Source of the DNA: a virus
Taxonomy: Duplodnaviria > Caudoviricetes
Virus record (IMG/VR): IMGVR_UViG_3300035665_000037
Coordinates: 1 to 61,315 of that record
Direction: 5' to 3' (one strand)
Length of the DNA: 61,315 nt
Part shown: positions 8,724-43,200 of the stretch, piece after piece
How the letters are laid out: each line of letters opens with the position of its first letter
How positions within the stretch are numbered: the first letter of the stretch is position 1
Notes under the pieces: generated by a model
Told to the model about the DNA's origin: nothing
Databases searched by the model: none
Seen by the model: only the letters and a program-made list of their open reading frames with translations
Made by a program: the position numbers and the translations under genes

Positions 8724-11700
8724 TTATTTGTTTTTAAGTTGTTGTTCTAATTCTACAATACGTTTTTCGAGCATTGCAATTTTGTATGTATGTACTTGAT
8801 TATAGTCAAGTGTATAAAATTTGTCTTCGCTTCCACTTACGGCATCAGGCAACCATTGCATGACTTCTTGTGCTGCATATCCCCAATGTATTTTATCATC
8901 CCTTCCATCTTTCCACTTATACTCCATAGCATCAAAATGTTGAGATTCGTGTCTATTTAATATTATCTTAAGTCTTAAGTCAGATGACTCAAAGAATCCA
9001 CCCGAAGAATATGTTGCACCACTTACTTGTAAAGGATACGCTCCTGAATCAGTTGTTGTATTAATTAATACTTCTCTGTTATTTGTTACATATATTGCAG
9101 TGCTTACAGATGATATATCATCACTTGTAGCATTTACCCAAATTGCCATACCTCCTGAATAATCATATCCGATACCTCCCCACTTAGTAGCGTTACTGTT
9201 AAATATCAACATTGGGAATGTCGATTGTAAAGTAGCTGTTTTATTCCAACCCCCTGTACCTGAAGGGCCTCCTGTAACATGAAAAGGAGTTGCAGGGCTT
9301 GTATTACCAATTGCAACATATCTTGTTGAAGACGCAATTGTCATTGCAACATTGTCACCACCTGTTGAAAACTGAAGCGCATTATCGGATTGAAGTAGCA
9401 TTGAGCCTGCAAGAGAACCCGACCCATATCCTGTAGCAAAAGTATTGATAACCCATTTACCACCACCTGCTACACCTGCATATCCCTCCATGTGTATTGC
9501 AGGATAATATCCTGACCTTACATAAATACCATTTTCGCCACCAAGATTACTTTGTTGATTAATATATAATTTCCATTGATTACCACCTGCTTGGTTGATA
9601 TTTAACTGCCCATCTGTGAGAAGTCTCATCTTTGTTGTTGCAGCCTGTTGGAATGCTATCTCATGATTTGAGTAAGAGCCAATAGCAAAAGTAGATGACG
9701 TACAAGATATAATTGCCTCTACACCTGAGCCTGAATTTAATATATCAATACTTGGTGATCCAACAGTACTTCCGTCTGTATGAACAGCAAGACCTGTTGC
9801 AGATGATGTTTTTACATCTAACTTATATCCAATTGCTGTATCTGTACCAATTTGAACAGTACCATTTGTATTTACTCTTATACCATTAGTTCCTAATCCA
9901 CCATTAGATGATAACCAAAGATGTTTGCCTGAAGGAGCAATTATGTATCCACTTGTTGAATCCCAAGTCCATCTACCTCCACCACCACCACTTGCACCGA
10001 GATAAAGGATATCACCTGTAGTAACTGTGCTATTTGTAGTTAATCCTCCGTTTATCTGTGTATTACCATTAACAGTTAAAGCCCCACTATTTGCAATAAT
10101 CATCCTTGCAGTAACAGTCATAGCAGCTCCTGCTGTTCCTGCAGGTGCAGTTAAGAAAGCAAACCCTCCTGAATCAAACCTAATCATTGAGGCAAAGTCA
10201 GCAAGAACATAATTATATGTTGTACTTGTGCTTGTATATCCAATATTATAACCAACACTTCCATAATCTCCTCCTGAACCGCCAATCCAAGTATAGTTGT
10301 GCGTTCTTACATAAGTTGCTGTACCTGAAGTTCTGATATAATCACCTGTTATAAGACTTGAACTAAATGTAGCAGCTCCTGTAAATGATAATGAAGAACC
10401 AAGAATTGAAAGAGTTCTATAAGCAGTATTAGCATTATTTACTGCTTGAATCCCTACCCCATTAGTTTCATTAAATATATCTAAGTTGTTATTTGTTGCA
10501 GTTCTAATAGTTGCTCTGTTGATAGCAGATGCACCAACTCCAAAGTTTCCAAAAACTGTTGTATCTCCGTTATAAGCAATAGTAAATCTATCGTTGTAAT
10601 TATTTTGAACTTTAAATAGATTCCCTGTTGTCGCATCAAATTCATTTGTAAACAAAAATGCAGCAGCATTATAACCTGTTATTGCAGCCTGATTTGTTGC
10701 ACGATTTATAATGTAGTACGTCCCAACACTTTCACTTTCACTTAATCCATAAAACATAGGAATCATAGCAGCGCTACCGCCTGATGCTATACCTACATAC
10801 CCATTTGATGAAGCATTTTGAAATGACCTATAGTCTCCTGTAGTACCTACACGCCCATTTACATAAAGAGTATATGTGGTATTTGAAGTATTATTGATGT
10901 TTAAAATGCCACCACCTGTAAGTGTCATCAGTCTTGTTGCACCTTGGTTAGCCCAAAATGATATTTCTCCTGCTGCTGAATTAGAAGATAAAATCAACCT
11001 ATCGCTGTTATTCCCCTGTATTCTTTCATTTGTTGTAACAACACCACTAAATGTGGCACTTGTACCACTTGTCGCTCCTGTTATATTTAATCCATTTAGA
11101 ATATTTACAGATTTATCGCTGTTTCTTAAAAGCATAACAGGACTTGTTCCTGATGTTGTATCAACTACAGTGCTACTATCTACCCAAAAATAAAGTCCAC
11201 TTGTAGATGCTGCTTCATATCCAATACCTGCAAACCTATTTGGTGTTGCAGTACTGTTAAATCCAATAACAGGATATATTGCAGTATTAAGCTGAGTCAT
11301 TTTCCAACCACCTGTAAGAGCAGTACCGGGACCAAGTATGTTTACCCTTTGACCATCGTCAGTTATAATTGAGTTTGTTAAAGAGGTACCACCTCCACTC
11401 CATTTTGCATGATAGTCATTTGTACCCGTTCCTGTTACAGGATTTGTTAAAGCTGCCTGAGCCCCTATATCTGAAAGTACCTGTGCTGCTGTTCTATATT
11501 TAACTACTCCCCCATCTGATACTAAGAATGTATTTGATGCAGTTGCAAGAGCAGCAAACACAGCAGATAGTGAACCTGCTAAAGATGTTGCCTTTGTACT
11601 TCCTACAAACTGAGCAATGGTTGCATTTTTACCATCAGCAATAACAAGATTCCTAAATCTTGTTGTTCCACCATTATATCCAACCCAATTTATGTAACCT

Positions 11701-12959
11701 TCAGAATCATCGTTATGACCAAAATTGAAGTTTAACGTAGATTGAGCTGCAGTAAATATTCCATAAGTACCATCATCAACTTTAAGTGGGAACTGTGTAG
11801 TTGGCCATGTTGTAGATATATTTACCGCACCACTAAAAGTTGCAGTTGTTCCACTAATAGCTTGATTAAAAACGTGTATACCTGTATCTGCATTATACAC
11901 CAAGTTTGTACTATGTTGTATGTATGCAAGCCTTGTTCCTGCAGCATCATTCCATCTAAAGTAAGGAGTAGCTCCTCTTGCCGTAACTATATCAGTTCCT
12001 GTAAGGTTTCCACTTGAATATAATGAAGAAGAAAACTCAGCAGCCCCTGTTGTTGATAGCTTTAGTCCATTGTGAGTTAAAGTTTGATTGGCATTTATGT
12101 AAAAAGTTTTGCCCGAAGCTCCAATTATATAAGCATTGCTTGAATCCCAAGTCCATTCACCACCGCCACCGCCACCTACTCCTACAATTAACTTGTCAGT
12201 TGTTGTCAATGTACTTGCAAATGTAGCAGCACCTGTAGATAGAAACGATAATACATTAGATGAAGCAACATCACTACGCAAAATAAAACTACCATCAAAG
12301 TCTCCAATAAAACGATATTGATTTACCCCGTTTAATCTGAATGACTGATGAGTGTAGCTTCCTGCTGCTGCAACAAAATTTAAAACTAATTGCTCGTTAG
12401 TGCTTCCACTAATAGTTAAACTTTGACTTAAGGAAGCACTTGAACCGGCTATCGCTCCTGAAACATTTAACCCGTAAAGCACATTAACAGAGTAGTCACT
12501 GTTTCTTATATATAATGCAGGATTATTTGCAATTGCGCTTAAAGTAGATGAATTAACCCAAAAATAAAGTCCACTTGTAGATGCTGCTTCGTACCCAATC
12601 CCTGCAAACCTATTTGGTGTTGCAGTACTATTAAATGCAATAACAGGGTATATTGAAGTGTTTAATTGATTTACAGTCCATCCTCCATTAATAGTTGTTC
12701 CGGGGCCAAGTATATTTATTCTACTACCATCATCTGTTATTATAGAATCTGTTAAGGATGTTGAACTCCCCCATTTAGACAAATAATTAGTTGTACCTGT
12801 ACCTGTTACTATGTTTGATGGGGCACCCGTAATCTTTGTCCAAGCCAAAGAAGTTATCCATGCAGGATTAGCATAAGAACCGGTAGACACAATCACATTG
12901 ATGTCATCAATACCACTATCTGCTAATATGTTATTACTTATCGTAGCTAAATTTGCCAT
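8724..12959 (-). CDS. Tail fibre with C-terminal intramolecular chaperone (peptidase S74-like)
   Basis: G/T/S/N-rich beta repeats; C-terminal SSDLRLK...GYAAQEV...P.AV followed by a coiled coil. Confidence 0.8.
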   Translation of the reverse strand: MANLATISNNILADSGIDDINVIVSTGSYANPAWITSLAWTKITGAPSNIVTGTGTTNYLSKWGSSTSLTDSIITDDGSRINILGPGTTINGGWTVNQLNTSIYPVIAFNSTATPNRFAGIGYEAASTSGLYFWVNSSTLSAIANNPALYIRNSDYSVNVLYGLNVSGAIAGSSASLSQSLTISGSTNEQLVLNFVAAAGSYTHQSFRLNGVNQYRFIGDFDGSFILRSDVASSNVLSFLSTGAATFASTLTTTDKLIVGVGGGGGGEWTWDSSNAYIIGASGKTFYINANQTLTHNGLKLSTTGAAEFSSSLYSSGNLTGTDIVTARGATPYFRWNDAAGTRLAYIQHSTNLVYNADTGIHVFNQAISGTTATFSGAVNISTTWPTTQFPLKVDDGTYGIFTAAQSTLNFNFGHNDDSEGYINWVGYNGGTTRFRNLVIADGKNATIAQFVGSTKATSLAGSLSAVFAALATASNTFLVSDGGVVKYRTAAQVLSDIGAQAALTNPVTGTGTNDYHAKWSGGGTSLTNSIITDDGQRVNILGPGTALTGGWKMTQLNTAIYPVIGFNSTATPNRFAGIGYEAASTSGLYFWVDSSTVVDTTSGTSPVMLLRNSDKSVNILNGLNITGATSGTSATFSGVVTTNERIQGNNSDRLILSSNSAAGEISFWANQGATRLMTLTGGGILNINNTSNTTYTLYVNGRVGTTGDYRSFQNASSNGYVGIASGGSAAMIPMFYGLSESESVGTYYIINRATNQAAITGYNAAAFLFTNEFDATTGNLFKVQNNYNDRFTIAYNGDTTVFGNFGVGASAINRATIRTATNNNLDIFNETNGVGIQAVNNANTAYRTLSILGSSLSFTGAATFSSSLITGDYIRTSGTATYVRTHNYTWIGGSGGDYGSVGYNIGYTSTSTTYNYVLADFASMIRFDSGGFAFLTAPAGTAGAAMTVTARMIIANSGALTVNGNTQINGGLTTNSTVTTGDILYLGASGGGGGRWTWDSTSGYIIAPSGKHLWLSSNGGLGTNGIRVNTNGTVQIGTDTAIGYKLDVKTSSATGLAVHTDGSTVGSPSIDILNSGSGVEAIISCTSSTFAIGSYSNHEIAFQQAATTKMRLLTDGQLNINQAGGNQWKLYINQQSNLGGENGIYVRSGYYPAIHMEGYAGVAGGGKWVINTFATGYGSGSLAGSMLLQSDNALQFSTGGDNVAMTIASSTRYVAIGNTSPATPFHVTGGPSGTGGWNKTATLQSTFPMLIFNSNATKWGGIGYDYSGGMAIWVNATSDDISSVSTAIYVTNNREVLINTTTDSGAYPLQVSGATYSSGGFFESSDLRLKIILNRHESQHFDAMEYKWKDGRDDKIHWGYAAQEVMQWLPDAVSGSEDKFYTLDYNQVHTYKIAMLEKRIVELEQQLKNK
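11180..11435 (-). repeat. Internal duplication in the fibre gene, copy 2
   Basis: SIITDDGQRVNILGPGT...FNSTATPNRFAGIGYEAASTSGLYFWV; DNA near-identical over ~75 nt to the copy at ~12555-12810. Confidence 0.85.
12555..12810 (-). repeat. Internal duplication in the fibre gene, copy 1
   Basis: SIITDDGSRINILGPGT...FNSTATPNRFAGIGYEAASTSGLYFWV. Confidence 0.85.
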
Positions 12960-12962
12960 ATC

Positions 12963-15900
12963 TTATACCATTGTGAGTGAACGCCAAGTTCCGTTAGCGT
13001 AAATATACAAACCAATTACCCCATTTGTCTGATAAACTATTAACCCTTCAGGTACAGTTGCTATTGCAGTACGCTGAGCCTGTGTCATACGTGGAGGCAA
13101 GAAGCCCTTTGTAGTGCTATCCATTTGGAATAACGCTGCAGCATTAATAGTTGCTGTACCCAATCCTACTGCTGATCCATTATCATAAAGCAAACTGTCA
13201 CCAATCGCACTTGCTCCGGTAAACTTCGACAAATAATTTGTCGTACCTGTACCGGTAACAGGATTGGTTAACACACTCTGATACTGAGGGATATTTAAGG
13301 TAGCACCCACTAAAGTGGCAGCGCCTGAAGTACCCGTAGTAGTCAGCGTAATAGCGTTCTGTTTATTATTAAAAGTCGTCCAATCGGTAGAGCTCAAATA
13401 TCCATTTGAACTTGCACCTGATTGCGTGATAGCAATTGTCGTTCCAACAAGCGTAATCGGAGCCGTAACTGAAATAGAGCTCTGCTTGTTATTAAATGTA
13501 GTCCAATCCGTTGAGCTTAAATAACCATCCTGTGACCCACTTGACTGAAGGATTCCAACTGTACCTGAGCCTGTGATAGTGCCGCCCGTTAACGGGCCGC
13601 TAAAGGTTATTGAAGTAACAGTTCCTACTGACCAAGTGCGGTTAACACTAAGGTCTTGGCTGAGTCCGTTGATAGTTATCGTTCTTGTATCCGGAACACC
13701 GCCTAAACCACTCAACGTATAGTTAGGTATGTTCAGCGTGTTGCTTACAAAAGTTGAAGAACCGCTATTGCCTGTAGTAGTCAGCGTTATTGTAGCCTGC
13801 TTATTATTGAAAGTGTTCCAATCGGTGCTCGACAAGTATCCATCTGACGAGGTGCCGGACTGCGTAATCCCTATAGTACCTGTACTTGTAATAGTTCCTC
13901 CTGTTATCGGGCCCGAAGTCGCAACGCTTGTAACTGTACCAACAGACCAAGACCTATCTGTACTCAAGTCTTGCGCCAATCCATTGATTGTAATATTACG
14001 AGTTGTTGGAACACCGCCAAGCCCTGCAAGCGTATATTGAGGTACATTAAGAACACCTGTTAAATTGCTGTAAGTAGCAGCTCCGCTTGATCCGGTGGTC
14101 GTTAAGCTAATAGCAGAGCGTGCTCTACTATCTGTAAAATAAAGGTTAGTACCCTCAGAAATATTTGATGTAGTAAGGTTTACTGCGCCGGTAAATCCAT
14201 TTACTGAGGTAACAGACTCTGTATTATCTACTTTTTGCCAAGCAGACCCGTGAAACACAATCCAATCCCCTACCTGCCATCCACTAATACCATCAATAGT
14301 CGTATTACCTGCTACACTTACAATGTAGAAGTACCCATCGGTACCAACACCTGAAGTAATAGTAGGGCTATTCGTTGATGCGTTCCAAGTACCTTGATAC
14401 TGCAACCCACCAATTAAGTCATTTACTTGTCCTTGTAGCTTTCCTAAAGCAGTAAGTATACTGTCAGTAGAAGATATTGTCGTGCCGGTAACAGTAAGAC
14501 CTGTAAGGACTTTACCTGTGACAGCAGAGTTACTGAGCGTGACACTTGCTGCGCCCGGACCACTCGCTGTGGCTTCACCCGTCAGTGAAGTAATATAGTT
14601 ACCCTGAGCTTGGTACTGAGGGATATTTAGCGTATGTGAAGTAAGCGTGGCTGCACCCGAAGTACCTGTAGTTGTCAGAGATGTAATTCGATTATCATAC
14701 GCCTCATCCCATTCAGCTTGAACAGCATTTGTTGGGAGGCTATATCCTGAAGCAAAAGTAAGCGCAAGTGTTCCTGCTCCGGTAACCGGGTTACCGGACA
14801 CAGCAAAACCTGTAGGTACACTCATATCTACAGAAGTCACTGTACCAACACTCCAACTTCTATCTGCACTCAAGTCATAAGCAGTACCGTTAATGGTAAG
14901 TGTTCTTGACTGAGGCGTATAAGCTGTGGTGTCAACTATTAAGGTACCGTTTGAACCTGAAGTTTTAAGAATACCATTGGTAGTGTATCCAATAAGCTGA
15001 ATGCTTAAGTCAGCGTTTAATGACATGGTGTAATTGCCGCCATTGACTTCAATCATTACCTTGCCACCTACATTATAGTTCGCAAGAGTAAGTCTGCTTT
15101 CAGCAGTATTATAATACAAAGCACCACTACCTGCGCCCATATTAGTCAAATAATATGAAGGAGCTGTAGGAGAAGCTGTAAATGTTTTGGCACCACCTAT
15201 TGTTTGAGTGGTAGCATTAATAAATCCTCTTGCTGAAGCTGACGCATCAGGAATATTAAAGGTGTGAACAGTACCTGCACTTACAATATTGAAGTCAGTA
15301 CCTGTTGTTCCGGTAGCAAATGTCTGATTTGAAGACAGTGCAAGACCATTTAATGTCCTTGTAAGAGGAACATATCTAAGATCAAGGTCTACGCTTGCAA
15401 GACCTGTAACGTGGCCAAACGTATCAAGAGATACGTCTTGGATTACAGTTCCCCCTGCATTGTCAACGCTTGTTTGAGATGAAGTATCTGCGTGGCTGAT
15501 AGTGCCTGACGTAGTAATTGTGCCACCATCAAGCCCTGAACCTGCAGTAATTGAAGTAACTGTACCTACGTTCCATGTTCTATTTGCGCTCAGGTCATAC
15601 GTAGTACCATTTATGGTAAGCGTGATAGCCTGATTAGCCGGAGTATATCCAAGAAGCGTAGCAATAGTTGCACTCTTCCAAAGATTTGTTGCAGTGTCAC
15701 GGTAAAGAACGCCATTGTTTATATAAGGAGTTGGGGCGACATCATGGAGCTCCTCGAGCTCATAACCGTTATCCACCTTAACATATATCTTACCATTATT
15801 TGGATGAGCATACTCTACATATCCAATAATTACGGTATGCTGAGGAGCAGCAGGTTTAATATTTGTGATTGCACCCGGTGTAGTTGGACTCAGATAAAGA

Positions 15901-18782
15901 ACATTACCATCAAGCCATGTCTCTCCCTGAAGATTACCTGTAGTATCTACATTGACAATCTGACCAATATTAACAATAAACCCTTCCTGATTGGTTGATA
16001 TGTCTTCACAAACCAATCCAAGAGTAGACGCACTGTTAGGATCATTATTAGCCTGAGCTAAGGCAACGGCAAGTCTTTGCCCCTGCGCACCTGCAACCCT
16101 TACAGCCTGATAAGCTGTTCTTGATAGATTACCACCTGTGCTGTTGCGCACTCTTGCTACAACGCTCTCTCCAATTGGAAGATTATATGTATTTCCTTTT
16201 AGAGAAAGTCTAATTGTTCCCTCAATATTATCCCACCACATAACTCCTGCAGCAGAAGGAATGTTACTGCTTGATAAATTATATCTAACAAAGTCAGTAA
16301 TAAGGCCATACGACCCAAGGTCAACGTCTTGTGTTGCACCTGTATATGGAACATATCCCGTAAGAACAGAACCATAGTCAGGAATATTAAGCACACCTGT
16401 AAGGTTGCTATATGTTGCAGGGCCACTACTACCTAAAGTAGTAAGGCTGATGGCAGAGCGAGCTCTGCTGTCAGTAAAATATAAATTAGTGCCCTCGGTA
16501 ACAAGGGTCGTTGTATAATCGCCCGACTGAGCTATAATTGCCCCTGTCCTTCCGAACACACTTGTCACCGGGGCGGTATCGTAATCAGTCCATGATGCAG
16601 TAATGGTTCCACCATCCTGCTGATTTAATGTTAATGTCTTTGTAGTCGTACCTGTAACTGCAGCAGAAGTAAGACTTCTGTCATAAGCAACGTCCCATTC
16701 TCCTTGACTTGCGTTTGTAGGAAGTGAATACCCTGCAGCAAACGCCACAGCAAGCGTACCACTACCCGTAACAGGGTTACCTGAGATAGTGAACCCTGCA
16801 GGCACACTCATATCTACTGAAGTGACTGTGCCTACGCTCCATGATCTGTCTGCGGACAAGTCGTAGGAGGTGCCGTTAATTGTAAGCTGCCTTGTTGTAG
16901 GAACAGCTCCAATATCTGAAAGCACCTCACTACCTGTCCTATACTTAATAACCCCTGAATCAGACACTAAGAATTTATCTGTGTCAGTGGCTGCGTTTGT
17001 TATAGTCTCAATATAGAGATCTCCCTCTATAGTTAGCTTATGTCCTGTGTCGTTAATGCCATCACCAATAATAGTGTTGCCATTAGCAAATATTTTTGAA
17101 ACCTGTGTAGCACCAATACTCTGAATAACTACTCCATCAGTATAATTATGAACAGTTGACCTTGGTGACCCAAAGTTGTTCATCGTAATAGTGTAAGCAT
17201 ACGCTGTACCATTACTATTTGCAAAAGTTACTACTCCACCTGTAGCAGTATTGTAGTTGAAGGTAAATGTATCTGATGAGTAAGATAGTGGACTATCTGT
17301 AAGCGTAGTCGTTCCACTCCACATTGGTAGGTAATATGCCGTCCCCGTACCCGTAACAGGATTAACAAGCGCATCTTGCTTGTTATTGAAGGTATTCCAA
17401 TCGGTTGAACTCAAGTATCCATTAGAGCTTGCCCCGGATTGCGTAATTCCAATCACTCCTGCCACATAAGTAATAGGAGCAGTAGCACTTAAGTCGTTAA
17501 GTTTATCATTAAACTCGTTCCAATCAGCAGCACTAAGGTAACCATCTGACGTAGGGCCGGCTTGCGTGATACCAATTGTACCCGAACCGGTAATTGTTCC
17601 ACCTGTAAGCGGTCCACTTGTAGCAATGCTCGTTACGGTACCTACATTCCATGTCCTATTCGCTGAAAGATCGTACCCTGTACCGTTAATTGTAAGGGTA
17701 GTAGTATTTAATACGCCATCAGTGATGCCATAACCGGACAATGTAGTGGGCGTTCCTGTAATCTTACTCCAAGCAAGTGAAGTAATCCATGAAGGATTGG
17801 CATAAGACCCATCTGTACGCACATCACCCACTGTCCATGACCTATCTGCACTAAGATCATAGCCTGTTCCGTTGATAGTAAGGGTTCTTGTGGCCGGAGG
17901 AGCACCAACATCGCTATAAGTAAGGACAACTGCCCCAACATACCCATTAACACTTACAACTGCGTCAGTATTATCTACCTTATTCCAAGCCGATCCATTA
18001 AATATAGCCCAATCACCGACTTTCCAATCAGTAATACCGTCCAAATTTGTGTTACCTGCTACGTTTACTACATAGTAGTAGCCCTTTGTACCTACACCAC
18101 TCTGCAAAAACGGGTTATTTGTAGCCGCATTCCACACACCTTGGTAGGTAACGCCGCCAAATAAACCATTTATTTGGTTTTGTACCTTGCCAAACGCCTG
18201 CAAAATGCTATCAGTTGCTACAACAGTACCGCCTGTTACGTTCAATCCACTCAAAACCTTGGCAATTACCGCAGCATTATCAAGTGTAACGGTAGCGTTG
18301 CCCGGTCCTGAAGCTGTTGCTTCACCACTAAGCTGTGTTATGTAGTTTCCCTGCGATTGATACACAGGGATATTTAAAACTTTACCAATATAAGTAGCAG
18401 CTCCACCCGTTCCCGTAGTGGTTAAGCTGTCAATTGTAGGCAGATCCCATGTCCTATCTGCTGACAGGTCATAAGTTGTCCCGTTTATTGTAATTGTTCT
18501 TGCAAATGGAACGTATGATGTTGAATCAAGAGATCCATCAGCCTTGACAAATTGTGATGCAAGACCGCCCGGGACAATAAAAGCAGCGGCTTCAATACTA
18601 AATGCTCCAAGATTTACGTTACCGGTGGCTCCAACATAAGGCACATAGTCTTGCCCGATGAGGTTACCGATCTCACTTATCGTAAAGTTCTTGGTATTAT
18701 TAAGATTCTCTACGTCTGTTCCGATCAACAGATCGTTCAGCGTAGGAGTCGATATTATCGGGTATGTACTTATCTTCGCCAT
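12963..18782 (-). CDS. Long repetitive fibre protein (1939 aa)
   Basis: Many TINGTxYDLSADRxWxVGTVTS and GYLSSTDWNTFNNKQ repeats; two YQGxWNAxTN..GDW..W.KVDNT modules. Confidence 0.8.
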   Translation of the reverse strand: MAKISTYPIISTPTLNDLLIGTDVENLNNTKNFTISEIGNLIGQDYVPYVGATGNVNLGAFSIEAAAFIVPGGLASQFVKADGSLDSTSYVPFARTITINGTTYDLSADRTWDLPTIDSLTTTGTGGAATYIGKVLNIPVYQSQGNYITQLSGEATASGPGNATVTLDNAAVIAKVLSGLNVTGGTVVATDSILQAFGKVQNQINGLFGGVTYQGVWNAATNNPFLQSGVGTKGYYYVVNVAGNTNLDGITDWKVGDWAIFNGSAWNKVDNTDAVVSVNGYVGAVVLTYSDVGAPPATRTLTINGTGYDLSADRSWTVGDVRTDGSYANPSWITSLAWSKITGTPTTLSGYGITDGVLNTTTLTINGTGYDLSANRTWNVGTVTSIATSGPLTGGTITGSGTIGITQAGPTSDGYLSAADWNEFNDKLNDLSATAPITYVAGVIGITQSGASSNGYLSSTDWNTFNNKQDALVNPVTGTGTAYYLPMWSGTTTLTDSPLSYSSDTFTFNYNTATGGVVTFANSNGTAYAYTITMNNFGSPRSTVHNYTDGVVIQSIGATQVSKIFANGNTIIGDGINDTGHKLTIEGDLYIETITNAATDTDKFLVSDSGVIKYRTGSEVLSDIGAVPTTRQLTINGTSYDLSADRSWSVGTVTSVDMSVPAGFTISGNPVTGSGTLAVAFAAGYSLPTNASQGEWDVAYDRSLTSAAVTGTTTKTLTLNQQDGGTITASWTDYDTAPVTSVFGRTGAIIAQSGDYTTTLVTEGTNLYFTDSRARSAISLTTLGSSGPATYSNLTGVLNIPDYGSVLTGYVPYTGATQDVDLGSYGLITDFVRYNLSSSNIPSAAGVMWWDNIEGTIRLSLKGNTYNLPIGESVVARVRNSTGGNLSRTAYQAVRVAGAQGQRLAVALAQANNDPNSASTLGLVCEDISTNQEGFIVNIGQIVNVDTTGNLQGETWLDGNVLYLSPTTPGAITNIKPAAPQHTVIIGYVEYAHPNNGKIYVKVDNGYELEELHDVAPTPYINNGVLYRDTATNLWKSATIATLLGYTPANQAITLTINGTTYDLSANRTWNVGTVTSITAGSGLDGGTITTSGTISHADTSSQTSVDNAGGTVIQDVSLDTFGHVTGLASVDLDLRYVPLTRTLNGLALSSNQTFATGTTGTDFNIVSAGTVHTFNIPDASASARGFINATTQTIGGAKTFTASPTAPSYYLTNMGAGSGALYYNTAESRLTLANYNVGGKVMIEVNGGNYTMSLNADLSIQLIGYTTNGILKTSGSNGTLIVDTTAYTPQSRTLTINGTAYDLSADRSWSVGTVTSVDMSVPTGFAVSGNPVTGAGTLALTFASGYSLPTNAVQAEWDEAYDNRITSLTTTGTSGAATLTSHTLNIPQYQAQGNYITSLTGEATASGPGAASVTLSNSAVTGKVLTGLTVTGTTISSTDSILTALGKLQGQVNDLIGGLQYQGTWNASTNSPTITSGVGTDGYFYIVSVAGNTTIDGISGWQVGDWIVFHGSAWQKVDNTESVTSVNGFTGAVNLTTSNISEGTNLYFTDSRARSAISLTTTGSSGAATYSNLTGVLNVPQYTLAGLGGVPTTRNITINGLAQDLSTDRSWSVGTVTSVATSGPITGGTITSTGTIGITQSGTSSDGYLSSTDWNTFNNKQATITLTTTGNSGSSTFVSNTLNIPNYTLSGLGGVPDTRTITINGLSQDLSVNRTWSVGTVTSITFSGPLTGGTITGSGTVGILQSSGSQDGYLSSTDWTTFNNKQSSISVTAPITLVGTTIAITQSGASSNGYLSSTDWTTFNNKQNAITLTTTGTSGAATLVGATLNIPQYQSVLTNPVTGTGTTNYLSKFTGASAIGDSLLYDNGSAVGLGTATINAAALFQMDSTTKGFLPPRMTQAQRTAIATVPEGLIVYQTNGVIGLYIYANGTWRSLTMV

Positions 18783-23668: not shown

Positions 23669-23900
23669 AAGTATTTACGAATAATGGGGTTTGCTCGCCA
23701 ACATAGGCTCCAACAATATTAAACTCGTAGTACTCAATCGCCTCATCATGGTCCATTCCCTGATCCATCAGTATCTCAATCACCTTGTCAATGTTATACA
23801 CCACCCTCATGGTCATAGGCTCAATCCCAATGACAGCGTCATCAAACCCATCAGCAATTAACACGTCCTCGTAATCCTCGAGTATCTTACTTAGTTTCAT
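23652..23900 (-). CDS. Acidic hypothetical phage protein
   Basis: Start MKLSKIL at 23900; ADGFDDAVIG..VVY..EAIEYYEFNIVGAYVGEQTP. Confidence 0.7.
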   Translation of the reverse strand: MKLSKILEDYEDVLIADGFDDAVIGIEPMTMRVVYNIDKVIEILMDQGMDHDEAIEYYEFNIVGAYVGEQTPLFVNTYASRD

Positions 23901-25485
23901 AACTTCTTGCCATTGTGATGATCGCATTGGTTGAAAGGATGGTAGTAGCCACACTCACTGCATTCTGTAGTGCTGAGCGTGTCACCTTAAGTGGATCAAT
24001 GACACCCATCTTGATGAGGTCTCCGACCTCCTTAGTCTTCACATTCAGACCGATGCCATCGGAGATGTCAACGGTATAATGGTCCTCGACCTTCAGCCCT
24101 GCGTTTGTCAGTATCTGAGTAAGCGGAGCCTTGAGTGCCGCATCCAAAATTGAAGCAGCGATGTCCTGCTCTTCGGAGGTTACTTCGCCAACGAGATCGT
24201 AGACTTGTACTTCATACAAGGCTTTGCCACCACCGGGAAGGATCCCTTCCTCAAGTGCAGACCTTACCGCACACACCGCATCGTCAACCCTATCATACAA
24301 CTCCTTCTGCTCAAGGTCAGTGTTACCACCTACGTAGATCACACCAATACCTCCCGTTAGAGACGCTATACGTTCTAACAGATGATCTTTGTCAGCCTTC
24401 CTCTTTGCTACCTTATGCGCATCCCAAAGTTGGTTTACTCTCTCCTCGATCTTGGTTTCGTCTATCCTCAAATCAGATTTTAGGATGATGGTCTTATCTT
24501 TCGACACCACCACCTTAGCCGCATGGCCGAGGTCGGTATAACTTATCTGCGATAAGTCATCACCGGTCTTCTCGCTGAAGTATGTCGCTCCGACACTCAC
24601 CGCAAGATCCTGCATCAGCTCGTGCTGCTTGTACCCAAAGCTCGGTGGTTGAACCACGCAAAGCTTCAAGTTGTTCTTCATCACATTAGCCGCAAGCGTA
24701 TTCACCACATTCACGTGGCAGTTCGATACGATCAGAAGCTTCTTACCCTCTTGGATAATTGGTTTCAATACGTTCTCGATCTGCAAAATGTTCCCAATCT
24801 CAATGTCAGCCACAAGTACCATCACGTCCTCAAAAACACACTCGTCCCTACCCTGATCGTTTATAAACAATGGGCTCAAATAACCCCTGTCGATCTTCAA
24901 CCCTTTGGTGGTCTCAGCATAGGTGTCCTGAGTTTGACTGCGCTCCACAGTGACAATGCCACTGCGCCCCACGTCTTTATACACTTCGGCGATGATCCTA
25001 CCGATCTCCCGGTCATTGTTAGCCGAGATAGTAGCCACATCGTTCAGCATGCTGCCCGATACTTTCTTACTGCGCCTGCGCAGCTTATCCACCACCTTGT
25101 TACTTATTTCCACCATATTGCGAAGGACCTCGGTCCTGTTATGGTGTGGCTTAATACCATTCATACCCCCCTCAACCAACGCCTCCGTTAAGACAATAGC
25201 CGTGGTCGTACCATCACCGGCTGATGTAGCCGTACGGTCTGCCGCCTCCTTCATCATCTTAACCGCAAGGTTCTCGACAGGATCAAGTAGGTCAACCGCC
25301 TTGGCAACCGTCACGCCATCTTTGGTGACGGTGATGCCATGCGTATGTTGGGGGGATTCAATAAGTACTGTATTACCGGATGGACCAAGTGTGCTCTTAA
25401 CAGCACTTGAAATCTTCTTTATGCCGGAAATTAATTTAACTCTGCCGACTTCGTCAAAGACCAATTCTTTAGGTGAGTATTCCAT
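23887..25485 (-). CDS. groEL: Chaperonin GroEL (phage-encoded)
   Basis: TLGPSG, VTKDGVTVA, AGDGTTTA, EEGILPGGG and GVIDPLKVTRSAL motifs; no C-terminal GGM repeats. Confidence 0.97.
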   Translation of the reverse strand: MEYSPKELVFDEVGRVKLISGIKKISSAVKSTLGPSGNTVLIESPQHTHGITVTKDGVTVAKAVDLLDPVENLAVKMMKEAADRTATSAGDGTTTAIVLTEALVEGGMNGIKPHHNRTEVLRNMVEISNKVVDKLRRRSKKVSGSMLNDVATISANNDREIGRIIAEVYKDVGRSGIVTVERSQTQDTYAETTKGLKIDRGYLSPLFINDQGRDECVFEDVMVLVADIEIGNILQIENVLKPIIQEGKKLLIVSNCHVNVVNTLAANVMKNNLKLCVVQPPSFGYKQHELMQDLAVSVGATYFSEKTGDDLSQISYTDLGHAAKVVVSKDKTIILKSDLRIDETKIEERVNQLWDAHKVAKRKADKDHLLERIASLTGGIGVIYVGGNTDLEQKELYDRVDDAVCAVRSALEEGILPGGGKALYEVQVYDLVGEVTSEEQDIAASILDAALKAPLTQILTNAGLKVEDHYTVDISDGIGLNVKTKEVGDLIKMGVIDPLKVTRSALQNAVSVATTILSTNAIITMARSYETK

Positions 25486-25768: not shown

Positions 25769-25851
25769 ATAATCGGGTATTTAAAAGAGTGAAGGGGAAA
25801 AACCACAACTGTGATCCCTCCCCTTCTTAAGTAGACCTGTACAATTTTTGT

Positions 25852-26049
25852 CTAATAACGCTTTCCTTCCTTCAAAGACTCACTCAAATCGGACATCTTA
25901 TCTCCACGATAAACAGCTTCAGCCATCATCTGAATCTTCTGTTCACGCTTCAAGTCCTTTTTAATCTGAGCAGCCTGTTGAATACCGGTAACACTATTAG
26001 GACGATTGTTAATAAGCCTACCGTTCCTAACCGTTAAATCGTTGTACAT
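25852..26049 (-). CDS. Hypothetical protein
   Basis: 65-aa ORF, first gene of the leftward arm. Confidence 0.65.
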   Translation of the reverse strand: MYNDLTVRNGRLINNRPNSVTGIQQAAQIKKDLKREQKIQMMAEAVYRGDKMSDLSESLKEGKRY

Positions 26050-26203
26050 GGTATAAAGTTAATAAAAGTTTAGATAAGTACAGTGTCGGGGTTATACCCC
26101 GGTTTGACGCAGCCGCCCCGGTTTCCGAAACGGATTTTTTTTGCAGGGGTGGGGGTGCAAGTTGTCCCGGCTTCGTGCAACTTTTTGGCTTTTCCCTTTG
26201 CTA

Positions 26204-26300: not shown

Positions 26301-26473
26301 CCCGTCCCTTGCTTCGATCCTATTTCAAAGCATACATGAACAGAAAGGCGGGGTTATACCCGTCCCGTTGTAATGATCCCGGATAACCTGAAAAAAACTT
26401 TTACCCATAACTCATTGATAATCAGCGTGTTTATTACTCGTTCAAAAAAATATCAAAAAAAGTTTAAAATAAA

Positions 26474-26506
26474 TTTGGAATTAAACATGAATTGAACGTA
26501 TATTGC
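26474..26506 (+). promoter_or_regulatory. Putative early promoter
   Basis: TTTG (26474) ... TATATTGC (26499), near match to the Bacteroidota -33/-7 consensus. Confidence 0.5.
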
Positions 26507-26544: not shown

Positions 26545-26805
26545 ATGACAAAATTTGAACACGCTATTCAGCAAGTAAACGAAGGTACGTTGCAGGCTCC
26601 TTCTGTTAATTATCAAGGTAAGGCCGTTAATTATTTCGCTTATCAATTAAGCGTTCATCACTTTTATTTAAAACTTATGGCAAAGGGTATCGGCAACAGA
26701 CAAATAAAACTGAAGGATCTTAAGGAATATTATGGCCTGAAGGGTAAAACGGCTTCGGACGTTCTTATTCAGTTTGAAGCATTAAGGGAAAGGGTATTAG
26801 GTTAA
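26545..26805 (+). CDS. First early protein, hypothetical
   Basis: 86 aa, A-rich leader. Confidence 0.75.
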   Translation: MTKFEHAIQQVNEGTLQAPSVNYQGKAVNYFAYQLSVHHFYLKLMAKGIGNRQIKLKDLKEYYGLKGKTASDVLIQFEALRERVLG

Positions 26806-26851
26806 CTGAAGAGACTTTAGTAGTCGAAACGGGCTTCGGCCCGTCTTAACC
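26800..26851 (+). ncRNA. Type I hammerhead ribozyme
   Basis: GGUUAA CUGAAGA GACU-uuagu-AGUC GAAA CGGGC-uucg-GCCCG UC UUAACC: complete core plus three stems. Confidence 0.9.
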
Positions 26852-26867
26852 AATTAAATTAAATATC

Positions 26868-27047
26868 ATGAAAAAAATGATCTGTTTATTCGCTACAATT
26901 TATTTGGCCTTCATGACCTTCATGATCCCGGCCATGTTCTTCATGTTTACGGATCCAACGGCCGTGAATTTATGTATGGCTTCGATCCTTACGGCCGTTT
27001 GCGGCCTTGCTTCTTATAATTATTTTCTAACCTACAAATCAAAGTAA
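26868..27047 (+). CDS. Small membrane protein (59 aa; not in ORF track)
   Basis: MKKMICLFATIYLAFMTFMIPAMFFMFTDPTAVNLCMASILTAVCGLASYNYFLTYKSK; fills the gap up to 27049. Confidence 0.65.
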   Translation: MKKMICLFATIYLAFMTFMIPAMFFMFTDPTAVNLCMASILTAVCGLASYNYFLTYKSK

Positions 27048-27048
27048 A

Positions 27049-27909
27049 ATGAAAAAAGTATTCAGTTCAAATTCACAACTTGCACACGTTTGGGCAAATC
27101 AGTTGCAACACGAAGGCCGTGCTTCAAGCATGTTCTTTTATGGCCCGGTTATTTATAGTTACGGGCATCATTACGAAATAGCCCGTTTTTTAGAAACGGA
27201 CGGCGGCCAAAAAGTTTGCTTCGTGAATGCCAACGGGTATTCAAATTCAACGGCCAAACATACGGCGCACGTTTGGGCCGCAATACCGGACGGGATACCA
27301 ACTTTTAAGGTACCCTTTGCAACGGGATCAACTTATTCGTACAATCGTCAACACTATATCAGTGTAGACATTTTGCCCGGAATAATTGCCGCAATGCTTG
27401 TGGAATGTAAAAATTTATGCCATGATCAAATCAAGGCCCGGACCAACTTTTATTCATTCAGTCAAGCGGCCGGACGTTATGAAACGATCGTTGAAATATG
27501 CCAACTTTTTAACATTGAGATCCCGGCCCGTCCTGAAAATTACGAAGCGGCCCGGATCAAGGCCGAACATTTGCGAAATACACAAGGTGAACGCCAACGG
27601 GCAAAAGAACAGAAGGAACTTGAAAAGGCCAAAGAATTATTGGCAAAGTGGCTTCAGCATGAATACAACGGCCAACTTTACAATATCCCGGTACATTTGC
27701 GAATATCAAGGGACGGCCGCTTAATTGAGACAACGAAAGGAGCAAAGGTAGATCTTCAGGCCGGGCTTCGTTTATTGGCAAAATTGCGCAACGGATCAGA
27801 CGTGAAAGGTGAAAAGATAGACGGCTTTACATTGATCGAGAATACTCTCGATCATGTAAAAATTGGATGCCATACTATTTCATGGCCGGTAATTAATCAA
27901 TTATTTTAA
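27049..27909 (+). CDS. Early hypothetical protein
   Basis: 286-aa ORF in the early operon. Confidence 0.8.
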   Translation: MKKVFSSNSQLAHVWANQLQHEGRASSMFFYGPVIYSYGHHYEIARFLETDGGQKVCFVNANGYSNSTAKHTAHVWAAIPDGIPTFKVPFATGSTYSYNRQHYISVDILPGIIAAMLVECKNLCHDQIKARTNFYSFSQAAGRYETIVEICQLFNIEIPARPENYEAARIKAEHLRNTQGERQRAKEQKELEKAKELLAKWLQHEYNGQLYNIPVHLRISRDGRLIETTKGAKVDLQAGLRLLAKLRNGSDVKGEKIDGFTLIENTLDHVKIGCHTISWPVINQLF

Positions 27910-27915
27910 ATAACC

Positions 27916-27945
27916 GGGACCGGTTACGGCCGGTCCCTATTTTAA
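27916..27945 (+). terminator. Hairpin / putative intrinsic terminator or processing site
   Basis: GGGACCGG-loop-CCGGTCCC followed by TATTTT. Confidence 0.5.
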
Positions 27946-30704: not shown

Positions 30705-30895
30705 AAACAAGAGTATACGCTATTGATCTGTACGAACTTGATACAGAGATCCCGGTATGGGACCTTGATGACGATAACTTTATGGACCTTGCCGAGCAGC
30801 AGGGTAAAGTATGGACGCTTCAGGGATTCGAGAACGCATTTAATAACGAACAAATATCAGACACTTGGATAATCAGAATTATTAATCACAATTAA
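30701..30895 (+). CDS. Early acidic protein
   Basis: ATGA overlap; FMDLAEQQGKVWTLQGFENAFN. Confidence 0.7.
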   Translation: MKTRVYAIDLYELDTEIPVWDLDDDNFMDLAEQQGKVWTLQGFENAFNNEQISDTWIIRIINHN

Positions 30896-30906
30896 AATTA
30901 AATCAA

Positions 30907-31374
30907 ATGTTAAACGAACAACAAAGAAAGGACCTTGTAGATGAAATCTACGATTGGATTATGTCAAACGATGAGATGGGATTAGGAGAGATGGGGGATG
31001 CCGTTGATGAAGCCGAGAGAATAGTAAACAAATGGGAGAAGCGGACAGAGAAACCGGATCTTGAAGCCCGGTATTCACAACTTGCTTATGATTCAACACA
31101 AGAGTTGAGGCAGTTGGTTAGCGAAGGCGTTGTGTTATGGCCCCACGACACAGATGAGGACGATGATATGAATGTTATCTATGATTTGCCAATAACATAT
31201 TGGGTTGGTAAGCATGGGGATTATACAGAGTATGCCATCGTTCGAGTAGAAAAAGGACTTAAATTTATAGGACGATCCTTAAGTGATGGCGTTGATGACG
31301 AGATGACTTTTGGATTAGGGGACTTAAATCTGTCTGTAATTATTGACATAATAAATGAAATCAAATCAAAATGA
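30907..31374 (+). CDS. Early acidic protein
   Basis: 155 aa, AAATCAA leader. Confidence 0.7.
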   Translation: MLNEQQRKDLVDEIYDWIMSNDEMGLGEMGDAVDEAERIVNKWEKRTEKPDLEARYSQLAYDSTQELRQLVSEGVVLWPHDTDEDDDMNVIYDLPITYWVGKHGDYTEYAIVRVEKGLKFIGRSLSDGVDDEMTFGLGDLNLSVIIDIINEIKSK

Positions 31375-31598
31375 ACAAGTATTTAACAATTCTATTGGCG
31401 GTAACGCCAACGTACGTATCGGTATTTTGTACGCCGGTATGGGCAACTATTGTCATGGCGGTAGCCACGATCATTGCGGTAATCATTACCGGGAAGATAG
31501 AGGAGGACGAGTGGCTGACTAAATTGATGCGCCTTGTATGGGCTATTCACCTGACGGGTATCTTATTATCAATCACCATTCATAATACAATACTATGA
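31371..31598 (+). CDS. Small membrane protein
   Basis: Hydrophobic helices; ATGA overlap. Confidence 0.65.
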   Translation: MNKYLTILLAVTPTYVSVFCTPVWATIVMAVATIIAVIITGKIEEDEWLTKLMRLVWAIHLTGILLSITIHNTIL

Positions 31599-32643: not shown

Positions 32644-32665
32644 ACGTCCAATTAAATCAAATCAA

Positions 32666-39841: not shown

Positions 39842-40244
39842 AACAGAACAAGACTTAATAAGGGAGAAGAAAGCCATCGAAACATTCGTTAAGATATTCG
39901 GTGGATCATTTAAAAAGCTTGCACCACTTGACATTGACTACAAAGTATTTGACAAAGATGGTACACTCATAGCCTACGCAGAAGTAAAAGGTAGGCTTAA
40001 GACTATGAAGACTGCATACCCACTTCCGGTCGCACTCAGCAAGCTGAGTAAGCTTATTGAGAAGAGATTAAACCCGGTCCTGATATGGGCCTGCGATGAT
40101 GGTATTATTTACGGCAAAGTATTCTCACTTGTCGGTGAAGTAAAAATCGGTGGCCGCCCACCGAGAGATGGGTCGACCAATGATGTAGAGATGATGGTAT
40201 ACTTTGACTCTCAAAGATCACTCAAGTATGTTAGGTTTACCTGA
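39828..40244 (+). CDS. Putative PD-(D/E)XK nuclease
   Basis: DIDY...AYAEVKGR motif. Confidence 0.6.
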   Translation: MTIFETEQDLIREKKAIETFVKIFGGSFKKLAPLDIDYKVFDKDGTLIAYAEVKGRLKTMKTAYPLPVALSKLSKLIEKRLNPVLIWACDDGIIYGKVFSLVGEVKIGGRPPRDGSTNDVEMMVYFDSQRSLKYVRFT

Positions 40245-43200
40245 TCGACTCAGAGTCTCTTTTGTACTTTGATTTGAAAGACTTCAATCTGTTGCGATAC
40301 TTTAGTCTGCGTTTCTGTGCAGGAGTATAGCCTCTCTCTTCGTCTTCCATTTCCTGAAGCTTCTTATTCAGTTCCTTCTCTACCTCCATCTCTGCTTTGT
40401 TCTCTAAATAGTATTGACTATTCTCTCCAAAGGTTTGCTCATAGAGTTCAGGATCGTAACGCTTCATGTCAGTCTTGTTATCATATCCCTGAAGAAGCTC
40501 CTTCATCTTTTCATCCTTCTCTACTTTCATCTTTTTCTTTTCAGACTGAATGGCCTTCTTTTCTTCGTCACTCATGCTTAGTTCATCAATCATATCTTCA
40601 ATGGCCTTGATCTTATCAGCATCTACCTCATCGTTTTTAAGTTGTTCAAGTGCGTTGATCTTATCTTGTTTACCCTGCTCCAACTTCTCTTTTCTTTCTC
40701 CTGAAATTCCTTCTGCTCTTTTTTCTAACTCAACATCTTCTCTTGTCTTACCGCCCTCAACAGTAGATGCAGATCTCTTAGCATCAGCAAGTGATGAACG
40801 AACAATACTGTTAACCTCTGATGGAGTAAGTCCAAGATTGGATACGATTGCAATAGGAATCAACATACCGATAGCATCTCTGTCTTCTTCAGATAGATAC
40901 TTCTTACGTCCATAGTCATCCTCGTATGGAAGGCCGGCAGAAAGCTTAGACATCTCATATAATTGGTTGATACGAGAAGCTGAGATACCGAGAAGGCCTA
41001 AGCTTTGGAAGAAGTCCTGTTTGTTACCTGAATAAATCTCAAGCCTTTCTTCTTCGTCAATGTCAAGAGCATCTTGTGTTGCATCTAATACTGCAGATGC
41101 TCCCATCTGTACGGCCTTATCAAGTAGCGGAGCAGGAGAGAATACATCGGCTACTGTACTTGTAAGCTGACCTTTCATGATGGCATCTATCTTCTTCTTA
41201 TCTTTCTCCTCATCGTCTTCTCTACCCATAAATTCTTTTACAACTTCTGCAATGAGTAAAGCTGAACCGGCAGACAATGCTCTGAATGTAACCATCTCCG
41301 CAGCGAAACCACCAAGAGATCGAGCAGCTATCTTCTTATCCTCAATAGTTGATGTCTTGTCGGTAAGCGTAGCAAGATCGGAACCAAGCCTTGCAGATTG
41401 GTTCATCCTGAACGATGCGAATGGCATAAGAACCTTTACAAACAATTGCTTGCTTGCATCTTTACTTGATAGAAGCGCACCGGCAAGATCAGAATCAGAC
41501 ACGTTCTGCTGACGGTCAACCTGACGCTGAGCGTAGTCAGCAGCCTTCTGATTAATCTTATGGTTATTGTAGTCTATTGTTTTTGTATCAATACCCTGCT
41601 TCTCAAGAGACTGCTCGTAGTACGTCATCCAAGATGCACGAGCAATGGCCACGTCAAAACGAACAAGTAAATTCTTAAGCCACCAATTGTTTACTTTCTC
41701 GATAGCCCTGAATGCTTGTTCGGGTTTGCTTTTTGCAGCCTCGTCAATCATTTTATTGAGGGACTCAATCTGAGCTTGTGATTCTACGCCACGATTTGCA
41801 ATGGCGTATCCTGATTTGTTAATGAAGTTTTGTTTTGCTGTATCAAATGTTGACCTTATGTCCAAGCCTCCTGCGTTGATAAACGTGTTCATGGCGATAG
41901 GAACAACTTGTTTGATTGGCTGAAGCACACCACCAAGAGCCTGACCAACACCGATAGATGCAAGTCTGTTAAGTCCTTTCACTGCTTTAGAGAACTCATC
42001 GTTTGAGAATGGGTTCTTGTTACGGATATTCTTTATGTATAAATCAATCCTGTTTCTAAGAAGCTTCTCGTCTCCGGTACCTTTCATTATTCTACTGAAG
42101 GCATCAGAGTTAAGAGCAGATTGTACCTGACGAATAGGTGCTGCAGTGTTGATGTCAACAAGTGCATCATACATTGCGTTTGAGTTATTCTTATCAAACG
42201 ATAGGTCGATGTATCTATTTGGCTTCTCTGTCTTTGAGTTTTGTGGAAGCGACTCAGGACGAGTAGCAGCCATCAATACCCCTGTTTCTTTTTTGTACAA
42301 CGGAGCAGTACCACTATTGACAAGGAATCCCATGTCTTCTGCAGTGATGTCAACCTCTCCGGGATCAGAGCTAAGCTTAGTGAATCTATCAGGAGTATAG
42401 TTAATATCCTTATCCAACACTTTGTTATACACACCAAGAGCTACATCTGATAGTTCTTCATAAGATTCAGCCCATTGCTGCTGCCAAAAGTTTACTGCTT
42501 CCAAGTTTTCTTCTGCAGCTTTTTCTTGTACTTGATCAATACTATCTGAATCTTTTAGGATCTTATCATATACCTCTTGATAAGTATTGGCTTTCTCTAT
42601 CTCTTGATCATTACCTTTCTCGAGTTCTGTTATTGACTCTTCAATTAATTTCTTTCTTCTCTGAAACTCTGCCTGCATTTCGGCTTCCGTTCCAATAATA
42701 TTTCTTGACATGAACGCAACCATACCACGCTCCACATTGTTAGCGGCAGTATTAAACGCCTGTCCATTAGGCTTCATCTTGTAGAACTTATCTACGTATT
42801 GCTTAACAATACTATTGGATTTGTTCTGAGCTTTTGACTTCCCACTTTCTACTTGGCTCACACCCATTGCATCTTCAACCATACCACCTTTGGTAAAGCC
42901 TCCGAACATACGCTCGAACACAATATTAAGGTTCGCTGTCTGCTCAAGTAGAAGTCTTCCAAGACCTTTAGACCAATACTTACTGATTGGCTTAGCCTTG
43001 ATACCTTTCTTTTCCAAAGCTTTCATCTCAGCCTCACCTTTATACTTGGAAAGAACTGACTCCATCTTTGCGATGGATTTGTTTTGGAAGAAGTTCATCA
43101 GTGCATCTACCGCTTCAAGTGCCTGCTTTGGTTTGAGTACGTTCAGGTCCATATCCATGAACTCTTTGACTACTCTTTTCTGATTAGCAGTATACTCTAC

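Follow-up and report, generated by a model that had tools for sequence, protein, structure and literature searches.

The window analysed here, i.e. the whole stretch of 61,315 bp, is a complete virus record with direct terminal repeats, in which a hammerhead motif lies at 26800-26851 on the plus strand. Structural genes (portal, TerL, GroEL and others) occupy the minus strand up to position 25485, small ORFs run on the plus strand from 26545 onwards, and genes for an exonuclease, a primase/helicase and a helicase follow them. The GenBank relatives of the window's TerL come from 68 Flavobacterium (elemo), 15 Cellulophaga, 2 Tenacibaculum and 1 Maribacter phages, the best match being the uncultured podovirus MW202828.1 (78%), and judged by its sequence the host phage appears to be a podophage of the Flavobacteriia type. 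The minus strand also encodes a full-length GroEL-type chaperonin (23887-25485; PHROG 5725, E 7.5e-128), and since homologs with 62-88% identity were found in 22 of the viral loci examined, this gene marks a whole group of related phages. Moreover, four giant minus-strand ORFs (12963-18782, 8724-12959, 40237-47727 and 53208-57680) encode proteins of 1939, 1411, 2496 and 1490 aa; for the largest of them no Pfam match was found, and we take a virion or RNA-polymerase-like role of these ORFs, as in other Bacteroidota podophages, to be a possibility. The features at and around the hammerhead, all on the plus strand, are the following.

26470-26477 (+): TAAATTTG, regular-expression hit for the -7 promoter motif of Bacteroidota type, 68 nt upstream of the first plus-strand ORF; weak
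26545-26805 (+): upstream ORF of 86 aa, no Pfam or PHROG family
26797-26854 (+): segment matched over the full length of the family covariance model: ribozyme, conserved unpaired A at -1 (26799) and AA at +1/+2 (26852-26853)
26800-26805 (+): 5' strand of stem I, GGUUAA, pairing with 26846-26851 over exactly 6 bp
26806-26812 (+): core CUGAAGA (C3-U4-G5-A6-A7-G8-A9)
26813-26816 / 26822-26825 (+): stem II, GACU/AGUC, 4 bp, with the closing pair G10.1-C11.1 (G26813-C26825)
Between the two strands of stem II (+): loop II, UUAGU, fitting the family pattern U-N-A-N-U
26826-26828 (+): core G12-A13-A14
26829-26834 / 26839-26844 (+): stem III, A-CGGGC/GCCCG-U, 6 bp, with the pair A15.1-U16.1 (A26829-U26844) and a UUCG tetraloop
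26845 (+): C17, last letter of the cleavage triplet GUC (G26843-U26844-C26845), which follows the N-U-H rule
26845/26846 (+): predicted scissile bond, 3' of C17, from hammerhead chemistry applied to the sequence
26846-26851 (+): 3' strand of stem I, UUAACC
26852-26867 (+): A/T-rich leader without Shine-Dalgarno sequence, AAUUAAAUUAAAUAUC, resembling other leaders in the genome (19 ORFs listed)
26868-27047 (+): downstream ORF of 59 aa, hydrophobic, no family

Upon re-reading the sequence, every hammerhead element that the initial annotation had claimed for this segment was found base for base, and the core that it called canonical for type I was borne out by the sequence and by the Rfam alignment, with no core position altered and GUC as the cleavage triplet. 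The site combines the conserved core with three helices of 6, 4 and 6 bp, the closing pairs G10.1-C11.1 and A15.1-U16.1 and an NUH triplet. Hammerhead ribozymes cut 3' of C17, and the expected products would be an RNA ending in GUC with a 2',3'-cyclic phosphate and a second RNA beginning with 5'-OH-UUAACCAA. The last codon (GGT) and the stop codon (TAA, 26803-26805) of the 86-aa ORF make up positions 1-6 of stem I, the TAA taking positions 4-6, while the ATG of the next ORF (26868) lies 22 nt after the predicted cut. Start codons in the window lack Shine-Dalgarno sequences and are preceded by A/T-rich leaders, both of which are typical of Bacteroidota. An A/T-rich leader of the AAUUAAA(U) type, like the one behind the ribozyme, is common to many plus-strand genes (30885-30906, 32644-32665 and others) and may be a translation-initiation signal of this phage group.

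Both ends of the transcript have candidates. The octamer at 26470-26477 conforms to TAnnTTTG, presumably the -7 promoter motif of Bacteroidota; no -33 TTTG was found at the right spacing from it, and we regard it as a weak candidate for the start of the ribozyme-bearing transcript. Weak matches to sigma-70-like hexamers lie nearby. At the other end, a perfect GC-rich palindrome (GGGACCGG...CCGGTCCC; 27916-27937, both strands) directly 3' of an ORF of 286 aa was flagged as terminator-like and is possibly the real end of this transcript. A search for related loci with the 286-aa protein yielded one weak, partial match. The apparent 1-kb non-coding gap before the plus-strand genes contains a region of small minus-strand ORFs (25860-26200) with protein-level conservation in two relatives (L096 and L108), beside which a 16-bp hairpin with a T tail is located (25791-25826, minus strand). 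The 86-aa ORF had been named the first early gene, and it is indeed the first plus-strand ORF after the strand switch; the accompanying designation of its message as the earliest transcript goes further than this position supports.

We then asked how exceptional the site is. A descriptor made of CUGANGA, GAAA, three stems and U-H matches exactly one site when both strands of the window are scanned, while 300 dinucleotide-preserving shuffled genomes gave 4 loose sites (0.013 per genome) and none under the strict setting with stems of at least 6/4/5 bp. The Rfam search suggested along with the original claim gave a divided answer: RF00163 (Hammerhead_1) aligns with the site end to end (model positions 1-45), but its 22.3 bits (E 0.0032 in a search of 251 nt) fall short of the gathering score of 34, and at gathering thresholds Rfam returned no match in the whole window. 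Searched against the whole genome, RF00163 gives E 1.8e-4 for the site, with a second match at 10.1 bits that is noise; because RF00163-type signals below the cut-off also occur in 13 of 14 control genomes, this match by itself is weak evidence. RF03152 (RAGATH-1 hammerhead) likewise stays under its threshold, with 24.3 bits against a gathering score of 56.3. A far clearer result came from covariance models built on the relatives described below. The leave-one-out model R2, which was built from an alignment of 26 members without the window (A2), gave the site 79.2 bits (E 2.9e-16, filters off), and since nothing else in the genome exceeds 16.1 bits, the element is present there as a single copy. 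The model R1, with the window included, gave 80 bits and the same genome-wide picture. A chance occurrence of the hammerhead at 26800-26851 is unlikely. When GenBank phages were searched by blastn with the surrounding 4 kb or with the element itself (81 nt), no match resulted, the query being too short or too divergent, and three metatranscriptome runs (shares 0.05-0.08) contributed seven contigs of 155-247 nt, all of which lie outside 26793-27470.

Relatives of the element were collected from IMG/VR by three pattern scans differing in the letters held fixed. Scan 1, in which the core letters, some of stem II and the beginning of stem III were fixed, yielded 7 viral loci; each is a type I hammerhead placed after a stop codon and ahead of the next ATG, and their stems I and II differ in sequence and are complementary. 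Fixing only the stem I and core letters (scan 2) returned at least 120 stretches with up to 5 matches per locus; although pairing was not imposed, stem II of at least 4 bp together with stem III of at least 5 bp forms in 129 of 152 sites among the matches listed, compared with 8 of 3040 controls with shuffled interiors, and the variable stem positions of the listed matches show all four Watson-Crick pairs. Scan 3, in which only the core and stem-loop II were fixed, also returned at least 120 stretches, and among the matches listed 130 of 131 distinct sites form a complete type I hammerhead. The architecture of the latter is strict: among these listed matches stem I is exactly 6 bp long in 129 of 130 and is flanked by A(-1) in 129, by A(+1) in all 130 and by A(+2) in 100, while roughly 40 different, perfectly complementary stem I sequences occur, the commonest being that of the window (GGUUAA/UUAACC, 32 sites). 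Loop II follows the pattern U-N-A-N-U across the family; N7 is A in 13 and position 17 is C in 167 of 179 family sites among the matches listed. A looser descriptor counted 291 distinct elements in the viral loci examined, and single loci hold up to 6 copies, in some cases within a few kb. The window carries every feature of this family, namely the 6-bp stem I, A(-1), AA(+1/+2), the U-N-A-N-U loop II and an ATG at 22 nt.

Covariation is heavy in all three stems, and the compensatory changes support the helices, as those scored come from scans 2 and 3, in which pairing was not imposed on them. An alignment of 27 gap-free members including the window (A1) shows changes on both sides in 11 of 16 pairs, a score reached by none of 500 shuffles; its rows had been pre-selected for pairing, so that the 100% pairing in A1 is there by construction. 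A search for a pseudoknot, or for covariation linking loop II to the flanks, brought nothing convincing (maximum mutual information 0.22 bit); the conserved unpaired A(-1), A(+1) and A(+2), the U-N-A-N-U loop and the fixed 6-bp/4-bp geometry would fit a putative tertiary contact between stem I and loop II, of the kind that allows fast cleavage at physiological Mg. In 15 related loci (143 kb), Rfam at gathering thresholds reported no hammerheads, compared with 45 matches of R1; standard annotation misses this phage hammerhead family. One related viral contig (L077) carries a match to the Rfam DUF805b RNA motif above its gathering score (250-282, minus strand, 38.9 bits).

The predicted energetics of the window's own copy raise the question of whether it is a relic or a purely structural element, which would fold without useful cleavage in vivo and whose GC-rich stem III would serve as a hairpin stabilising or terminating the transcript. 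In the minimum free energy structure (-18.9 kcal/mol), stem II is lost to an alternative fold in which the CUGAAG core pairs with the stem II region; this fold is 0.8 kcal/mol better than the hammerhead fold (-18.1 kcal/mol) in a nearest-neighbour calculation that leaves tertiary contacts out of account. The hammerhead helices hold an ensemble share of 0.115 in the window, the lowest of 27 family members (range 0.115-0.68), and the sub-threshold Rfam score and the single copy in the genome would also suit a relic. On the other hand, the core is intact also at those nucleotides for which a plain hairpin would have no use, it is invariant across hundreds of relatives whose stems covary, and the unpaired A residues specific to the family have been kept. 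Moreover, stem III is not followed by a T run and was not flagged in the terminator scan, on which grounds it was rejected as a terminator. Thus, we consider a relic very improbable.

The position of the family relative to genes is likewise fixed. Among the matches listed, 107 of 148 sites have their first ATG 18-24 nt downstream of the cut, 126 of the 131 with enough flank are preceded by a reading frame in the same orientation that stays open for at least 40 codons and stops at the element, and 109 of 130 precede an ATG-initiated ORF of at least 40 codons. The downstream ORFs are small (median 71 aa for the 269 complete ones in the viral loci examined) and mutually unrelated; any Pfam match was found for at most 9 of 149 downstream proteins (a random sample of 213 unique ones), spread over 7 unrelated families. 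A functional tie to the downstream gene was rejected on account of this diversity, and together with the context counts the small, unrelated ORFs indicate that the element is tied to gene boundaries and not to a gene. Type I hammerheads of the same layout were also seen in high-GC viral contigs that bear Shine-Dalgarno sequences (L005 with three sites, and L007, L008 and L010), with other stem I sequences of 4-6 bp and 30-40 nt upstream of an ATG that has GGAG in front of it; the hammerhead-before-gene layout is thus not confined to Bacteroidota-type phages.

At the 5' side, the upstream stop falls within -9 to +7 in 116 of 126 sites among the matches listed. In 81 of these 126 sites it overlaps or abuts the beginning of the ribozyme: 43 have it at +3 (TAA, stem I), 17 at +7 (the TGA within CUGA) and 21 at -2 (TAG). 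From the TAA in stem I the initial annotation had derived the idea that a terminating ribosome could gate the folding of this stem, which is physically plausible, the stop lying inside stem I. Developed further, cleavage would be regulated by translation: ribosomes terminating at the stem I stop would control folding, and the cut/uncut ratio and downstream expression would report translation of the upstream ORF. The fixed places of the stop in these 81 sites and the TAA of the window, in the second half of the stem I strand, agree with such a control; so does the established footprint of the ribosome, which means that a ribosome sitting at that stop necessarily occludes both stem I and the core, and a competing fold of close energy is available in the window. 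However, an overlap with stops is expected from compact packing alone, since the commonest stem I/core sequence holds both TAA and TGA and ORFs entering it end there in two of three frames. Furthermore, stems without TAA are common in scan 3, where GGTTAA accounts for only 32+2 of 130 among the matches listed. We therefore regard translation-gated cleavage as a minority possibility, although not a negligible one.

Carriage of the element is patchy. A model search of whole records detected 1-3 copies in each of five IMG/VR relatives that share the phage GroEL. Among named phages, Flavobacterium phage elemoA_7-9A has one copy (52.3 bits) with stem I GGCAAA/UUUGUC, the same A flanks and the loop UUAAU, and Cellulophaga phage phi19:3 has one (41.9 bits; KC821608.1, 21766-21820, minus strand), unannotated, between gp051 and gp050. 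The elemoA_7-9A site (MT497017.1, 17287-17350, minus strand) is annotated only with a small CDS on the opposite strand. That CDS, elemo79Aphanotate_43 (17275-17382, plus strand), is a 35-aa 'hypothetical protein' running antisense over the hammerhead and is probably a spurious gene call. The same search found no copy in MW202828.1, phi13:2, phi38:1, Calle_2 and Gundel_1; the element is hence missing from the closest named relative, MW202828.1, and from four of five Cellulophaga/Tenacibaculum relatives, and judged by these genomes it is dispensable. Among 185,579 species genomes, only 10 stretches match the stem I pattern; most are short MAG contigs, and the two long records are both from Bacteroidota, namely Paraflavitalea (a complete chromosome) and Niabella. 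This scarcity and the patchy carriage by phages mark the family as overwhelmingly viral and sporadic. Six of the short MAG contigs (L133, L134, L135, L137, L138 and L142), labelled Aliivibrio and beta- or gamma-proteobacteria, contain 1-3 GGUUAA-type hammerheads each and look like mis-binned phage contigs.

Synteny was considered as further support and was set aside. In one relative (L108, GroEL 79%), the ORF directly before the hammerhead encodes a protein with weak homology to the 86-aa one (31% identity over 61 aa, pairwise E 3e-5), and this ORF is also the first past the strand switch. This homolog is weak and precedes the hammerhead in only one of the five relatives searched (G002/L108), and the closest IMG/VR relative by GroEL (L096, 88%) has its hammerhead elsewhere, after a gene resembling window positions 31347-31586. 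Such a change of position between close relatives would suit a different explanation, by which the roughly 50-nt ribozyme and its leader form the boundary of a mobile or recombining cassette, i.e. a shared patch of homology or an RNA ligation/cleavage device for the exchange of small genes, with mRNA processing as a secondary effect. The element and leader are conserved and the flanking genes are not, and the clustering of several copies within a few kb, up to 6 per locus, points the same way; ligation, circular or spliced products were considered for clustered phage hammerheads in the account of Perreault et al. (2011; PMC3088659), and none were found there. Against a cassette speak the stem sequences, which differ so widely between copies that uninterrupted identity is mostly limited to about 10-20 nt of core and stem I, and the tight spacing of 18-24 nt to the ATG combined with the co-orientation of genes, which argues for a role at the mRNA level. 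We consider a cassette boundary improbable as the main function.

Comparison with known hammerheads places the element within a recognised class. It shares with RF00163 the catalytic core, the three-helix junction, an open stem I, closed stems II and III and the GUC triplet, and differs from it in its short stems, the missing stem I bulge and the phage mRNA context; eukaryotic repeats and satellites are the usual type I sources named in PMC3088659. The earlier statement that hammerheads occur in phage intergenic regions is borne out by the same article, in which hammerheads flanking phage genes and the hypothesis of polycistronic mRNA processing were already published in 2011. As described there, tandem prophage hammerheads cleave polycistronic transcripts of about 2 kb in vitro, one set also in E. 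coli, and like the present family the prophage and phage hammerheads are intergenic, lie in runs of co-oriented genes, occur in several copies per element in many genomes, have variable neighbours and were proposed to cut mRNA into gene-length pieces. The examples given there differ in that they come from Clostridium, Azorhizobium, Agrobacterium and Legionella and from the Pseudomonas and Burkholderia phages, with an emphasis on type II hammerheads with a pseudoknot. The present subfamily, with its 6-bp stem I flanked by A, the U-N-A-N-U loop II and hosts without Shine-Dalgarno sequences, does not figure in the account that PMC3088659 gives of these examples; Dataset S1 of that article could contain members. 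Literature on hammerheads of Flavobacterium or other Bacteroidetes phages, with few subscription journals covered, gave no description of the subfamily. The purpose of bacterial and phage hammerheads was still described as open in a 2019 review (PMC6765202), with a processing role listed as unproven.

The closest parallel in position is HHphage of the haloviruses HF1 and HF2, which in the account of PMC3088659 lies 13 nt upstream of the start of an early-region ORF of a lytic virus; it precedes the first ORF of the early transcript, and a 5' end was mapped within 3 nt of its cut site. HHphage differs by a core insertion, a need for very high salt or Mg and an archaeal host, whereas the window's element has the consensus core. 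With RAGATH-1 (RF03152) the element has in common a similar layout of stems I and III and the letters GAGACUU ... CGAAAC around the core, while the upstream hairpin of RAGATH-1 aligns poorly and the window has a normal stem II of 4 bp instead of the single pair of that model. Synthetic insulators of the RiboJ type, which derive by engineering from a satellite ribozyme of type III, carry an extra hairpin and are used in E. coli, also place a hammerhead just before a coding sequence and thereby yield a defined short leader independent of what lies upstream; the fixed spacing of the family suggests likewise. Unlike RiboJ, the window's element is natural, of type I and would leave almost no ribozyme sequence on the downstream RNA.

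On this evidence we consider it highly probable that 26800-26851 is a functional type I hammerhead acting as a processing module in a polycistronic plus-strand message of a Flavobacteriia-type podophage. The motif, its statistical significance, its place in the family, the covariation and the fixed position between stop and start codons are results; that the RNA cleaves itself in vivo, which ends it leaves and how expression is affected is what we infer. Once transcribed and free of ribosomes, the RNA would form three helices around the core and cut itself after C26845. Because the cut is 3' of the upstream stop codon, the upstream fragment would keep the 86-aa ORF intact with its stop; its 3' part would consist of the hairpins of stems II and III and carry a terminal 2',3'-cyclic phosphate, stem III becoming the 3'-terminal hairpin and the end lying two nt past this GC-rich UUCG hairpin. 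By type I topology, the whole ribozyme would stay with the upstream product. The downstream fragment would start with a 5'-OH and retain only UUAACC, within an unstructured, A/T-rich leader of 22 nt without Shine-Dalgarno sequence, followed by the 59-aa ORF. The element could hence be pictured as a portable module meaning 'cut here' plus a standard leader, by which adjacent members of a mosaic of small genes would become independent of one another in stability and translation; the layout given by the topology, the fixed spacing to the ATG and the diverse neighbours together suggest a module that both processes and insulates. The initial proposal of a self-processed transcript with a 5'-OH on the downstream mRNA remains the best reading, given the constant placement of the family at 18-24 nt upstream of start codons, once the qualifier 'earliest' is dropped. 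In some bacteria, 5'-OH mRNA ends are associated with faster degradation.

A more ambitious version of the processing reading can be formulated, which we put forward tentatively and deem doubtful: the elements would be a distinct subclass specialised for Bacteroidota phages, whose mRNAs lack Shine-Dalgarno sequences, and would act as a natural 'insulator cassette' in which stop-timed cleavage is an obligatory, translation-coupled step of expression. All structure would then stay with the upstream RNA and protect its 3' end, cleavage would create the 5'-OH, A-rich leader of about 20 nt needed for efficient initiation on the next small gene, and the stop codon inside stem I would time the cut by termination of the preceding ORF.

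Through the window's hammerhead, a phage subfamily comes to light that is large, sharply defined, missing from annotation and represented in culture. The hundreds of relatives on viral contigs have a strict architecture and a fixed distance to the start codon, and current Rfam thresholds miss them. As two cultured phage-host pairs carry members (elemoA_7-9A with Flavobacterium sp. BAL314, and phi19:3 with Cellulophaga baltica #19), a bench test of function is possible. A dedicated model would remove false small ORFs from the annotation of Flavobacteriia phages and would mark transcript boundaries in it.
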